DNA of 64,000 nt, taken from positions 24,814-88,813 of the forward strand of contig CAZSGY010000006.1 of NCBI GenBank assembly GCA_964606975.1, in the 5' to 3' direction. Under the pieces are notes generated by a model, which saw nothing but the letters and a program-made list of their open reading frames with translations, ran no database searches and was not told the DNA's origin. The DNA comes from an uncultured Gammaproteobacteria bacterium (GTDB taxonomy: Bacteria > Patescibacteriota > Microgenomatia > UBA8517). Positions within the stretch are counted from its first letter, which is position 1, and every line of letters starts with the position of its first letter. The position numbers and the translations under genes were made by a program. Shown here piece after piece: positions 26,494-36,838 of the stretch.

Positions 26494-27594
26494 ATGGAAA
26501 CAGAAAATAATTCTGAAGTTGGCGAACTCTATCCAATTTCTTTGGAAGAAACGTGCGTAATTGGCAGTATTCTCTATAAGGATTATCAAACTGATGGGAC
26601 AGAAGGTAATATTAGGGGACATAGAGCAATAGATTCTCTGGTCAAAGCTGTTGATAAAGGTTGCAAAGCCTCAATTATTATTAGTCAGGAAACTGATAAA
26701 AAGTTTATCTCTGATTTAAAAGGAAAATTATCAAACCTGGGCGATAAAAGTGAAAATGTTGTTTGGCACATGCAAAGCAAAACCGGTTACAGTGAAGCTA
26801 GACGTGAGGCAATAGAGTTGGCAAAGGCGAAATATCCAGAAACACGCGCCTTTATTATGCAAGAGATAGAAAAGGATTTAACTTCAAATTACGATAGTTT
26901 TGTAAACAAGCTATCCGATAACAAGATCTTAGTAATGATGAACAGAGGGGTGAATATTCCATACAATGAAAATCCCTGGCAGGATACTAAACATTTAGGG
27001 GCAAATTTGCCCAGAGAACAATTTTGGGGAGAAAGACACCAAAATATTGAAATGGCAAACCAAGAAAGTGCTGCCGGATTAACAAAAGAACCTCATTTTT
27101 GGGACAGGTTAAATGGTACACGGATAATTAGAAACGAACGGGTTAAAATTGGAGACGTTGAAATAAATCCGACTGACTTAATGCTTCTAAAATATAAATA
27201 TTCAGATGGTTATTCGGAAGAGGATAGAAAAAATAAAATCGATACATATTCAGCCAGTGTTTATAATTTAGTCCCAATATTGGAATCCCTAGGCGGTGAG
27301 GATAAAATAGCCGAAGTTCCTGTAGAATATATTCACTCTGAAGGCCAAAGGCAATTGGAGGAGGGAAACTCGGAGTTTAAAGAAAAAAGATTGGGACATA
27401 AAGTCGATTTGCCAGCAATTAATTTTGATATTGTTGCAAATATAAAAGAATGGAAAAAAGAAGGAAGGTGGCCGCAGGTTTTATTGGATGCGCTGAAGAC
27501 TGACAAAACTTTGGAAATAAAACATTTTGATAAGAATGAATATAGTTTAACAGGAGTTAATAATCCGACTTTTGGTCGGGGTGCTGAGAATTGA
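26494..27594 (+). CDS. Hypothetical soluble protein (366 aa), no recognisable domain; low GC; 3' end overlaps antisense tRNA-Pro
   Basis: Complete ORF wedged between rpsI and tRNA-Pro; no TM/signal peptide; last 22 nt including the stop lie inside the tRNA on the opposite strand. Confidence 0.6.
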   Translation: METENNSEVGELYPISLEETCVIGSILYKDYQTDGTEGNIRGHRAIDSLVKAVDKGCKASIIISQETDKKFISDLKGKLSNLGDKSENVVWHMQSKTGYSEARREAIELAKAKYPETRAFIMQEIEKDLTSNYDSFVNKLSDNKILVMMNRGVNIPYNENPWQDTKHLGANLPREQFWGERHQNIEMANQESAAGLTKEPHFWDRLNGTRIIRNERVKIGDVEINPTDLMLLKYKYSDGYSEEDRKNKIDTYSASVYNLVPILESLGGEDKIAEVPVEYIHSEGQRQLEEGNSEFKEKRLGHKVDLPAINFDIVANIKEWKKEGRWPQVLLDALKTDKTLEIKHFDKNEYSLTGVNNPTFGRGAEN

Positions 27595-27646
27595 ACTCAG
27601 TTCAGACGCACCCCATGCGCCTATTCTACCGGTGAACTACACCCCG
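27573..27646 (-). tRNA. tRNA-Pro (anticodon GGG), 74 nt with encoded CCA
   Basis: Manual fold: acceptor CGGGGTG/CACCCCG, D-stem GTTC/GAAT, anticodon stem GGCGC/GCGTC, loop A-T-GGG-G-T (G37), T-arm CTGAG-TTCAATT-CTCAG, discriminator A, CCA. Confidence 0.85.
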
Positions 27647-33820: not shown

Positions 33821-34825
33821 ATGAATACTCAAGGGATGTCCGGTCCAAACCGCGACAAATTACTGGTGATCTGTGGTCCGACGGCAACCGGGAAAACCGA
33901 TTTGGCGATATCTTTGGCCAAAAAATTTAATGGCGAAATTGTTTCTGCAGACTCCCGTCAGGTTTATAAAGGTTTGAATATTGGTACAGGAAAAGATTTA
34001 CCCAAAGGAGCAAAAATTAAACATCTTTGGATTAAAAGATTCGGCTACTATGAAATTAGAGGAGTAAAGATTTGGGGGTACGATTTGGCAGACCCCCGCC
34101 ACAGTTTTAGTGTCTCACAATATCTGAAATTTGCTGAAAGAATAATTGCGGATATCGGCAAAAGAGGAAAGTTGCCGATCTTGGTAGGCGGTACCGGCCT
34201 ATATATTAAGGGAATAATTGACGGAATTCCGACTGTCGATATTCCTAAAAGTAACAACTTAAGAAAAAGTCTGGAAAGCAAAAGCGCTGCCCGCCTTTTT
34301 GAAACTTTGGCCCAGATAGATTCTTTAAAAGCTGCCGGAATGAACGCTTCGGACAAGAAAAATCCCAGACGGTTAATTAGGGCAATAGAAATTGCTACCT
34401 GGAAAATGAACCATGGAAGACAGGGAGAGTTTTTGGAAAAAAAGATTGCAAAACATGACGTCATGCAAATCGGACTTATCGCAAATGAAGAATATCTAAA
34501 TCATAGAATTGAACAGCGTGTATCAAAGAGGTTTAGAGAACGGCTCGAAGACGAAATTGCGGAATTACTCAAAAATCATGTCAGTTGGGAAATGCAGTCT
34601 ATGAGTTCAATGGGATACGGAGAATGGAAAGATTTTTTTGAAGGTAGAAAATCTGAAAAAGAGGTTATTTGCGCTTGGGAACTAGAAGAAAAGAAATACG
34701 TAAAAAGGCAGCTAATTTGGTTTAAAAAAGACGAGAGAATAAAGTGGTTTGATATAACAAATAAGAATTATTTCGAAAATGTGGAAAAAACAGTCAGTGC
34801 GTGGCATAATAGGCGAAATGAATAG
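33821..34825 (+). CDS. miaA: tRNA dimethylallyltransferase
   Basis: ICGPTATGKTDLAI P-loop, ADSRQVYKGLNIGT motif. Confidence 0.92.
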   Translation: MNTQGMSGPNRDKLLVICGPTATGKTDLAISLAKKFNGEIVSADSRQVYKGLNIGTGKDLPKGAKIKHLWIKRFGYYEIRGVKIWGYDLADPRHSFSVSQYLKFAERIIADIGKRGKLPILVGGTGLYIKGIIDGIPTVDIPKSNNLRKSLESKSAARLFETLAQIDSLKAAGMNASDKKNPRRLIRAIEIATWKMNHGRQGEFLEKKIAKHDVMQIGLIANEEYLNHRIEQRVSKRFRERLEDEIAELLKNHVSWEMQSMSSMGYGEWKDFFEGRKSEKEVICAWELEEKKYVKRQLIWFKKDERIKWFDITNKNYFENVEKTVSAWHNRRNE

Positions 34826-35786
34826 AAAGGTCGACATATCTCACCGGACGATAATTTTCGCTGTTCTTTTTCTCCTGGGAATTTGGTTTTTATATTACAT
34901 CCGCGGCATTCTATTTATGCTTTTTGTCTCCTTTCTTTTAATGACAATTTTAGAGCCTCTTGTAAAATTGTTTGTCAGACTTAAGATTCACAGAAGTTTG
35001 GCAGTAATTATCACTTATATCTTAGTCTTTGGTGTGCTTGGCGGAGTAATCGCCACTATTGCCCCGGTGTTAGTCCGGGAAACATCAAGTTTCATAAGCG
35101 CACTTCCTGAATACTTATCAAAAACCAACATTGGCCCATCATTTGACGGCATACTAAGCGGTCTGGCTCAGCAACTGGGCGGAGTTCTGAATTTCACTTT
35201 TTCGATTTTTTCCAATGTTTTTTCATTAATCACGGTTTTGGTTTTTTCTTTTTATATGCTTTTGGGTTACAACGGTATCCGAAATCAGGTTATTCTCTTG
35301 TTGGGTGAAAAGGGGGGGAAGAAAGTTAACAGGCTTATTTCTTCGATTGAAGAAAGATTGGGCAAGTGGTCCCGCGGACAATTATTGCTGATGTTGGCGG
35401 TGGCTGTCGGAAACTATATTGGGTATTTGCTTCTTGGAATCCCGTTTGCTCTCCCTCTGGCGTTATTGACCGGTATTTTCGAAATAGTTCCTGTTTTGGG
35501 ACCGATTATTTCTGCAATTCCGGGGGTGCTTATTGGTTTTGGAATTTCACCGCTTACAGGCATTGGTGCGGCTGCAGTTGCCTTTATAGTCAATCAACTG
35601 GAGAACTATGTTTTGGTTCCTAAGATTATGCAAAAGTCTACGGGAGTATCTCCTCTTTTAATACTTATTTCGATCGCAATTGGGGCAAAGTTGGCAGGGG
35701 TTGCCGGGGTGATTATCGCTGTGCCTTTTGTCATTACACTTCAGGTTATTTTAAAGGAATACTCGGGGAAGGGAGAAAACCAATAA
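34818..35786 (+). CDS. AI-2E family transporter (PerM/UPF0118)
   Basis: 8-TM protein with conserved ...GIFEIVPVLGPII.AIPGVL... block; start trimmed to ATG 34818. Confidence 0.8.
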   Translation: MNRKVDISHRTIIFAVLFLLGIWFLYYIRGILFMLFVSFLLMTILEPLVKLFVRLKIHRSLAVIITYILVFGVLGGVIATIAPVLVRETSSFISALPEYLSKTNIGPSFDGILSGLAQQLGGVLNFTFSIFSNVFSLITVLVFSFYMLLGYNGIRNQVILLLGEKGGKKVNRLISSIEERLGKWSRGQLLLMLAVAVGNYIGYLLLGIPFALPLALLTGIFEIVPVLGPIISAIPGVLIGFGISPLTGIGAAAVAFIVNQLENYVLVPKIMQKSTGVSPLLILISIAIGAKLAGVAGVIIAVPFVITLQVILKEYSGKGENQ

Positions 35787-35788
35787 AA

Positions 35789-35808
35789 AATCCCACTTTC
35801 GTGGGATT
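35789..35808. terminator. Perfect 8-bp hairpin (AATCCCAC-tttc-GTGGGATT) between convergent AI-2E gene and rnpB; likely bidirectional terminator
   Basis: Immediately after AI-2E stop (35784-86) and 3' of RNase P RNA. Confidence 0.5.
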
Positions 35809-35816
35809 CTCTATAC

Positions 35817-36231
35817 TCTGGAGATTAGTAAGCCAGGTTCTGTTTCTCGATGATCATCCATCTTTCGACGGATCTAAAGATCCGCCAAACCGATAAGGTT
35901 TGCTGTCAAATGACAAGCTCTGCTTATCTGTGCCCTCGAACCTCGTCCCGCCTCCCAGATTTCTCCAGGATTTTTAAAAGCTTATTTTCGCCCGTAAAGG
36001 GGCGGAACATTCGGAGGTTGCAGCGGGGAGGATTGCCTCTTTTCACTCGTTTCCATTTACCTTTAGGGTAAATGACTCGACATAGTTTCTGTGGCTCTAT
36101 ACTGGTCTACTGAGTCAGCTTTCGCTGTCCCGGTAGTCTCCGCCTTGCGACGGACACCCTGCTTTCTGCTGCCTGGACTTTCCTCTATCCTAAGCCTAAG
36201 CTCAGAACAGCGATCATCCTTTCTCCAGAGT
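35817..36231 (-). ncRNA. rnpB: RNase P RNA (bacterial type A)
   Basis: Minus strand reads ...GAGGAAAGTCCAGGCAGC... (P4 5' strand) ... GGTAAATGGAAACGAGTGAAAAGAGG ... CGAGAAACAGAACCTGGCTTACTAATCTCCAG (P4 3' strand ACAGAAcCTGGCUUA); P1 pairing CTGGAGA/TCTCCAG; ~415 nt GC-rich ORF-free region. Confidence 0.85.
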
Positions 36232-36236
36232 GGCCT

Positions 36237-36245
36237 ATTATAGCA
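36237..36245 (-). promoter_or_regulatory. Extended -10 (TGCTATAAT) promoter for rnpB
   Basis: RC of attatagca at 36237-36245, ~8 nt upstream of the predicted RNase P RNA 5' end. Confidence 0.5.
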
Positions 36246-36257
36246 CTTTGTCCCGGT

Positions 36258-36581
36258 TTGTATAGCAAAATGATTGACAAAATATTAGTAAATGCTAATA
36301 TATTTTCTATGAAACAAGCCATCATTTCCTCGTTTGCAAACACAACCCGGCTAAAACTCCTAATTTGCCTTAAAAGCGGTAGTAAAAATGTTACCGAACT
36401 TATCGCCAACTGCGGCCTGAGCCAATCCGCGGTCTCCCAGCATTTGGAAAAGCTGAGAGCGGCAGGTCTGGTGACCGGTGTTAGAGATGGAAGAGAAATA
36501 GTTTATAGGTTAAGAAGTCAAAAATCTGGTGAATTAGCAAAAAGCTTACTAAATTTTGCAAAGGAGGTGGATAAGAAATGA
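36258..36581 (+). CDS. ArsR/SmtB family transcriptional regulator
   Basis: wHTH: RLKLLICLKSGSKNVTELIANCGLSQSAVSQHLEKLRAAGLV. Confidence 0.85.
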   Translation: MYSKMIDKILVNANIFSMKQAIISSFANTTRLKLLICLKSGSKNVTELIANCGLSQSAVSQHLEKLRAAGLVTGVRDGREIVYRLRSQKSGELAKSLLNFAKEVDKK

Positions 36582-36838
36582 AAACAAAGAAAATAAAACT
36601 TTACTCGACGATGAGCTGTCCTTATTGTCGTATGGAAAAATCCTGGTTGGAAGAAAATAGTATCGACCACGAGGTTGTTTATGTGGATCAAAATCAGGAA
36701 GAAGCAATCAATATGGTGAGAAAGACCGGCCAAATGGGGGTCCCCGTTACCGAAATTGAGACGGAAAACGGCGAATCGGAATACATAGTCGGTTTTGACG
36801 TACAAAAATTGTCAGAGATTTTGGACATCAAAAACTGA
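36578..36838 (+). CDS. Glutaredoxin-like protein (NrdH/Grx family, CPYC active site)
   Basis: KIKLYSTMSCPYCRMEK...GVPVTEI; 4-nt overlap with the arsR-like gene. Confidence 0.85.
   Translation: MKTKKIKLYSTMSCPYCRMEKSWLEENSIDHEVVYVDQNQEEAINMVRKTGQMGVPVTEIETENGESEYIVGFDVQKLSEILDIKN

Follow-up and report, generated by a model that had tools for sequence, protein, structure and literature searches.

Diverged RNase P RNAs that score below the default Rfam cut-offs have been known from CPR bacteria since 2021, when 10 of 35 circularised CPR genomes were described as seemingly devoid of an RNase P RNA until the RF00010 thresholds were lowered (Lui, Nielsen & Arkin 2021, PMC8172020). Many RNase P RNAs of the CPR lack P13, P14, P16, P17 or P18, or carry extended helices, and the UGG motif is absent in 23 of the 35 (PMC8172020). 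In type A RNAs, the domains are oriented by contacts between L8 and P4, between L18 and P8 and, more weakly, between L9 and P1, while a smaller layer of helices, built from P18 and P13/14, adds stability; either L8-P4 or L18-P8 can suffice (PMC8457005). Here, we analysed a 64-kb stretch of DNA (the window) and conclude with high confidence, on the basis of sequence comparison, that it carries the functional rnpB of a Candidatus Woesebacteria (Microgenomates, Patescibacteria/CPR) bacterium. The RNA fits the pattern described in 2021 in that its host belongs to the CPR, its detection with RF00010 requires scores below the default cut-offs, it has no P13/P14 and manual refolding was needed. Frequent absence of P18 and extension of some helices are likewise common to the published CPR RNAs and to the relatives of the window rnpB. 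The earlier survey, which covered 35 genomes broadly, highlights the loss of P12, P15 or UGG, whereas the window rnpB keeps P12, P15, P6 and a GGU and is thus less extreme than the highlighted cases. Compared with those RNAs as they are described, it adds a GNRA-capped hairpin in P16/17 and, ahead of a non-GNRA P18, a further hairpin.

Measured between the outer ends of P1, the gene is 417 nt long (35815..36231, minus strand), as supported by the RF00010 match together with covariation. RF00010, the bacterial RNase P class A model, aligned over its entire length (model positions 1-367) to the minus strand at 36229..35813 with 88.1 bits, at E=2.5e-27 in the local scan and E=2.4e-25 in the scan of the whole 64-kb window, and the alignment included P1-P3 and the long-range pairing of P4 (CR-I/CR-V). 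Since the score lies under the curated gathering score of 100, the membership threshold is not reached and default scans miss the gene: at the gathering threshold, Rfam scans of the region and of the whole window gave no match at all. We nevertheless regard the E-value of 2.5e-27 as decisive for homology despite the sub-threshold bit score. In the whole-window Rfam scan this was the sole match at E < 0.001, and in E-value mode RF00010 found no second rnpB match in the 64 kb; as the speed filters of whole-window scans drop real RNAs, such scans are weak negatives for other RNAs. The free-energy fold of the 417-nt RNA has a z-score of -6.6 against shuffles.

The low score is attributable to the absence of P13/P14, a non-GNRA P18 and lineage-specific insertions, and the cmscan alignment places large insertions in the P9, P15-17 and P18 regions. 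Eight relatives from genome assemblies scored 98.6-111.3 bits with the same model, so that the window rnpB and its relatives straddle the cut-off of 100 bits, with lineage-specific insertions taking some of them below it; from the alignment we infer that the insertions and the divergent P9 of the window account for the drop to 88.1 bits. An earlier note on this DNA had proposed a type A RNase P RNA on the minus strand, and this identification is borne out by the full-length RF00010 alignment, 82 homologues, synteny and covariation. The Rfam search that the note had suggested returned a significant, if sub-threshold, RF00010 match, and no other RNA family matched better, the remaining RNase P clan models lying below RF00010 and being suppressed. 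The motifs listed in the note, namely GAGGAAAGUCCAGGC, GGUAAAUGGAAACGAGUGAAA, ACAGAACCUGGCUUA, the P1 pairing, the promoter and the hairpin, are all present on the minus strand. The type A assignment was right, but the note had overlooked the atypical features of the RNA: the missing P13/P14, the non-GNRA P18 and the insertions.

Relatives were collected in two scans. A genome collection was searched with the three-anchor pattern GAGGAAAGUCC ... CCACAGAAA ... GUGAAA-NNN-GGCAA, which encodes the absence of P13/P14, and this recovered nine genome loci with the P13/14-less signature, all of them in CPR MAGs or in CPR synteny. A metagenome scan with a 28-mer invariant in 10 of 10 sequences gave at least 120 loci. 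The window, its genome relatives and the metagenome loci among the matches listed together provided 82 full-length RNAs of 276-426 nt. Seven of the nine genome loci are titled as Patescibacteria, Microgenomates or Woesebacteria MAGs and two as "uncultured Gammaproteobacteria"; these two (CAZTGB010000002.1 and CAZAXL010000002.1) have the Woesebacteria-type, P13/14-less rnpB and the gene order of the window, and their bins are probably mislabelled.

The gene order around rnpB is conserved, comprising an ABC transporter, miaA, an AI-2E permease, rnpB on the opposite strand, a pilin-like gene and a ComM-like gene. Proteins of the window (GC 40.7%) share 72-89% amino acid identity with those of Candidatus Woesebacteria GW2011_GWA1_41_7 (Patescibacteria group, Microgenomates group), and the nearest loci come from Candidatus Woesebacteria and Microgenomates MAGs of the Patescibacteria group. 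On the grounds of this synteny and of protein identity of up to 89%, we assign the window to a Woesebacteria-like CPR host. The window is matched at 99.66% identity over 3.2 kb by a strain-level ENA contig (L130), whose RNA is identical to the window rnpB; the gene caller of L130 left the rnpB interval without any call. The 11 substitutions between L130 and the window lie in the flanks; about 1.4 would be expected in the RNA.

Several observations concern the neighbouring genes. The mechanical ORFs of miaA (33821-34825) and the AI-2E permease (34779-35786), both on the plus strand, overlap by 47 nt (34779-34825); translation of the permease probably begins at a codon further downstream, as the alignment with relatives starts near residue 13 in several loci. 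On the other side, arsR (HTH_5) and grx (Glutaredoxin), confirmed by Pfam, occupy 36270-36838 on the plus strand, divergent from rnpB. The pair sits between rnpB and a conserved 72-aa ORF and is present in L130; it is missing from that position in all nine genome relatives, which marks it as a recent two-gene insertion. The start of arsR is ambiguous: the L130 caller takes the ATG at 36270, and an alternative ATG at 36309, located 7 nt past a promoter-like site (TTGACA-16-TAATAT), would give a leaderless mRNA. The sole tRNA gene in the window, a canonical tRNA-Pro(GGG) with an encoded 3' CCA (27573-27646, minus strand), was found by ARAGORN; it received 50.1 bits in a narrow Rfam scan and is absent from both whole-window Rfam scans.

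The transcription signals of rnpB occupy conserved positions. The promoter scan called TATACA-16-TATAAT with an upstream TG on the minus strand, combining a weak -35-like element, TATACA (36264-36259), with the extended -10 promoter TGCTATAAT (36237..36245), which scored 10/12 with the TG. At least 62 of the 82 sequences carry TGnTAnAAT 4-7 nt before the start of P1, so that transcription probably starts at or next to the P1 base 36231-36229, that is, at the mature 5' end. The extended -10 promoter proposed previously, with the arsR-grx pair divergent from it, was thereby substantiated. Downstream of P1, the terminator scan identified an intrinsic terminator at 35782..35808 on the minus strand, consisting of the perfect 8-bp hairpin AAUCCCAC-GAAA-GUGGGAUU followed by UUUUUAUU, and a hairpin with a T-run occupies the equal position in 70 of 80 relatives, with differing stem sequences. 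E. coli rnpB is arranged in a similar way, its transcription beginning at the mature 5' end and stopping at a terminator past P1. The U-tract and the TAA stop (35784-35786) that closes the convergent AI-2E permease gene overlap, and the hairpin had been taken for a terminator shared by both genes. That proposal is strong for the rnpB side; on the plus strand the hairpin is followed by UUCUCUAU, with just 3 T in 8, and the terminator scan made no call there, so bidirectional use is possible and weakly supported.

The secondary structure was examined in an alignment of 67 sequences made with MAFFT (A1), onto whose columns a hand-curated structure was projected. Standard pairs are formed in 94.8% of the cells, compared with 33-49% when the 3' partners were slid by 1-3 columns, and the covariation score is 0.260 against 0.04-0.07 in the slid controls. 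Changes on both sides occur in 71 of the 115 pairs, a number that none of 500 shuffles reached. Covarying pairs are found in P1 (9/10), P2 (6/7), P3 (9/10), P8 (6/6), the majority form of P9 (8/8), the inner part of P12 (8/9) and P16 (7/8), which demonstrates a conserved secondary structure. P4, P5, P7, P10/11 and P15 are invariant in A1 and give no covariation signal; the invariance of P4 and of the other fixed helices is in part an artefact, as the search and extraction anchors used these motifs. The P9 of the window itself is divergent and poorly aligned, and this helix and some of the insert helices are backed by few sequences.

The RNA retains its catalytic core, which comprises P1-P5, P15, the conserved regions and both pseudoknots (P4 and P6). 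P1 is formed by ACUCUGGAGA (36231-36222) and UCUCCAGAGU (35824-35815), and P4 by the 5' strand GAGGAAAGUCCAGGC of CR-I (36185-36171) and the 3' strand ACAGAACCUGGCUUA of CR-V (35829..35843), these and all following elements being on the minus strand. P4 pairs in 67 of 67 sequences, and its A-U pair (CCAGG/CCUGG), which the earlier note had pointed out, is real and common to all 67. The P6 pseudoknot characteristic of type A is present, pairing GAAAGC in J5/7 (36161..36166) with GCUUUU (35981-35976); in A1, 98% of its cells pair and 5 of its 6 pairs change on both sides, with a 3' strand reading GCUUUY across the relatives. The modules of the specificity domain that recognise the T-loop are likewise present and aligned, namely the P7-P11 cruciform, P12, J11/12 (CCACAGAAA) and J12/13 (GUGAAA); the motif GGUAAAUGGAAACGAGUGAAA lies within 36060-36041. 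P8 (36139..36154) is capped by the GNRA loop GCAA and the extended P9 hairpin of the window (36107..36136), which differs from the covarying majority form, by GAAA; L8 is a GNRA loop in 64 and L9 in 54 of the 67 sequences.

P12 (36047..36080) carries the near-invariant loop CCCUAAAGG. Its terminal loop ACCCUAAAGGU (36058-36070, A1 columns 273-289) is almost unchanged across the relatives. P12 loops are usually variable, and the conservation seen here in the alignment suggests a tertiary or protein contact. One candidate partner, the insert loop (CUUUA) to which L12 (UAAAG) is complementary in the window, was rejected, as the complementarity is lost in L016, L037 and L078.

The domain of P15-P16/17 (35934..36017), which also holds the 3' strand of P6, was delimited by the covariation of P16, by comparison with L016 and L078 and by constrained folds. 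P15 pairs CCUC with GAGG and is invariant in A1. The assignment was made through the invariant second GAGG; pairing AACCUC with the first GAGGUU instead was discarded, given that this first segment varies among relatives (GAGGACC, AAGGUCA, GAAGUUU) and the second GAGG does not. The J16/15 loop accordingly reads GAGGUUC (35944-35938), with a GGU that resembles the CCA-binding motif of E. coli, 2 nt before the 3' strand of P15. Among the relatives this loop is GGU, AGU or GGA; GGU is not conserved and AGU is common. P16 (GUUCCGCC/GGCGGGAC) covaries between the window, L016 (GGCCCGCC/GGCGGGCC) and L078 (GCCCCGUC/GACGGGGC). Two forms of this helix can be drawn, an 8-bp P16 or a 5-bp P16 with the local hairpin CGCCC-CUUUAC-GGGCG, and all three strands co-vary among the window, L016 and L078, in agreement with either form; constrained minimum free energy favours the long 8-bp P16.

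The periphery departs from the class A model. The cmscan alignment places 0 nt against the 42 model positions of P13/P14, and GUGAAAAGA is fused there to GGCAAUCCU (P11'/P10'; 36029..36046), with 3 nt between GUGAAA and GGCAA. This junction is common to the relatives of the window. A helix at the P13/14 site is retained in L010, L048 and L086, and an extra, P19-like hairpin lies between the 3' strands of P2 and P4 in L010, L016, L027, L058, L086 and L107. Two further sites vary in length. From the 5' strand of P15 to an invariant GAGGGC there are 35-41 nt in most of the 82 sequences and 53-73 nt in 20; the P18 region measures 2-3 nt, which amounts to absence of P18, in most of the scorable relatives and 34-68 nt in 16. 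The window is long at both sites (72 and 68 nt), like L038 and L080, and is among the three longest of the 82. Peripheral helices have evidently been gained and lost repeatedly within the clade of the window rnpB.

In the P16/17 loop, the lineage-specific insertion of the window amounts to about 35 nt and contains the GAAA-capped hairpin UCCUGGA-GAAA-UCUGGGA (35953..35970), whose inner pairs covary (5/5) and which has counterparts in about 20 of the 82 relatives, around half of them GNRA-looped. Before P18 lies hairpin A, GAUAAG...CUUAUC (35892..35928); it is common to L007, L038, L044, L080 and L129, and in L111 the stem is GGUGGGC/GCCCAUC. P18 itself, GGCGGAUC-UUUA-GAUCCGUC (35867..35886), has 8 bp and a non-GNRA loop; the relatives with the matching hairpin type have covarying stems closed by GUAA or GCAA, like canonical P18. 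Both insertions, the one in P16/17 and the one ahead of P18, are lineage-specific expansion segments whose role is probably structural.

Some of these features might be expected of a decaying or redundant copy, with the working rnpB elsewhere in the genome: the score of 88.1 bits is below the 98.6-111.3 bits of eight relatives, L18 is UUUA instead of GUAA or GCAA, and the RNA is among the longest of the 82. Yet the locus occupies the orthologous, syntenic rnpB position of the relatives, the conserved core motifs, both long-range pairings (P4 and P6), the promoter and the terminator are all intact, and no second match was found in the 64-kb window. The insert helices are well paired and covary with those of L016, L078, L007 and L129, and P18, where the loop is deviant, is dispensable in most relatives. 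The RNA is also identical in the second strain, in whose flanks 11 substitutions have accumulated, a weak argument given the expectation of about 1.4 in the RNA. We therefore consider a pseudogene very unlikely. Membership in another structured RNA family, such as an archaeal-type RNase P or an RNase MRP-like RNA, is less probable still; the lack of P13/P14 recalls archaeal type A RNAs, as does the lack of P18 in most relatives, but RF00010 is the best clan member with the other RNase P models lower, the RNA has the bacterial P15 with its GGU loop as well as a P6 pseudoknot, and the genomic context is that of a CPR bacterium.

The interval also contains stop-free stretches of 40-74 aa, and tblastn finds similar peptides in the relatives, so that a coding function had to be weighed for the ORFs at 35850-36071 (plus), 36091-36243 (plus), 35924-36046 (minus) and 36185-36409 (minus). 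None of the four has a Pfam match, the likeness of the peptides is no more than 75-84% DNA identity would yield in any case, and the gene caller of L130 called nothing there. Relatives differ by indels of about 35 and about 65 nt, which are not multiples of three, and hence a conserved reading frame is lacking; most of them have no P18 region at all, and substitutions track base-pair compensation and not codon periodicity. A protein-coding interval is accordingly the most improbable of these alternatives. The earlier note had called three ORFs in the interval spurious; the judgement holds, but the number of mechanical ORFs (at least 40 aa) that overlap the RNA is four. The reading of the locus as a functional rnpB remains, with an RNA that is very probably ordinary in function, as far as comparison can tell, and atypical in its periphery.

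Among the described RNase P RNAs, the window rnpB resembles the class A RNAs of RF00010, such as E. coli M1 RNA and that of Thermotoga maritima, in the topology of P1-P12 and P15-P17, the P4 and P6 pseudoknots, the motifs GAGGAAAGUCC, CCACAGAAA, GUGAAA, AGAUGNAUG and ACAGAACCNGGCUUA, the GNRA loops L8 and L9 and the GGU in J16/15. Unlike them, it lacks P13/P14, has a non-GNRA P18 (absent in most relatives), carries an A-U pair in P4 where the class A consensus is G-C, and has insertions in P16/17 and before P18. Archaeal type A RNAs also lack P13/P14 and P18 and have a reduced peripheral RNA layer. These RNAs, however, rely on 4-5 proteins, and the archaeal model is the one that they match best, whereas the window RNA scores best to the bacterial model and has a bacterial-type P15 loop, P6 and a bacterial context. 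Type B RNAs of Bacillus lack P13/P14 and have an A-U at the matching P4 position (CCAUG/CAUGG). Type B and the window rnpB also have in common that lineage-specific helices take the place of peripheral elements. In type B, P5.1, P10.1 and P15.1 are present, with no P6, P16 or P17, whereas the window RNA keeps P6 and P16, and no P5.1 or P10.1 was seen.

In the mechanistic model that we propose, rnpB would be transcribed from the extended -10, sigma-70-type promoter and transcription would end at the intrinsic terminator a few nt past P1, the terminator hairpin presumably being removed afterwards, as happens with E. coli M1 RNA. The transcript would fold into a reduced type A ribozyme that, together with RnpA, would cleave 5' leaders from pre-tRNAs; a crude regular expression for the RNR motif, the one search made for rnpA, found no rnpA in the 64-kb window. 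Substrate recognition would draw on the retained modules P7-P12, with CCACAGAAA and GUGAAA, for the T-loop. For the 3' end of the substrate, the GGU in J16/15 and the CCA-encoding tRNA-Pro suggest canonical pairing with the 3' CCA, as read from these sequences; the correlation of GGU or AGU with an encoded CCA across the relatives' loci is uninformative, with just 6 tRNAs. The peripheral stabilising layer would be reduced, with P13/P14 absent in the lineage and P18 without a GNRA loop in the window, so that the orientation of the domains would rest on the GNRA loops L8, docking to P4, and L9, docking to P1, and on the protein.

By analogy with type B RNAs, which substitute P10.1, P15.1 and P5.1, the inserted P16/17 hairpin and hairpin A might serve as replacement struts, making new tetraloop-helix contacts that offset the lost layer of P13/P14 and P18. 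We regard this as an unlikely, tentative idea; if true, these RNAs would constitute a separate, modular structural subtype of bacterial RNase P RNA within Microgenomates.

Collectively, these findings indicate that an essential housekeeping RNA gene was missed in the window genome, and probably in many Microgenomates MAGs, which affects checks of genome completeness and allows spurious ORFs to persist in the gene track. The current understanding is unchanged, as the phenomenon was reported for CPR bacteria in 2021, and the interest of the window rnpB lies mainly in annotation quality and in the comparative material that it provides on dispensable RNase P helices. The comparison of 82 sequences represents a natural experiment in which P13/P14 and P18 are dispensable, while P6, L8, L9 and P12 are kept.
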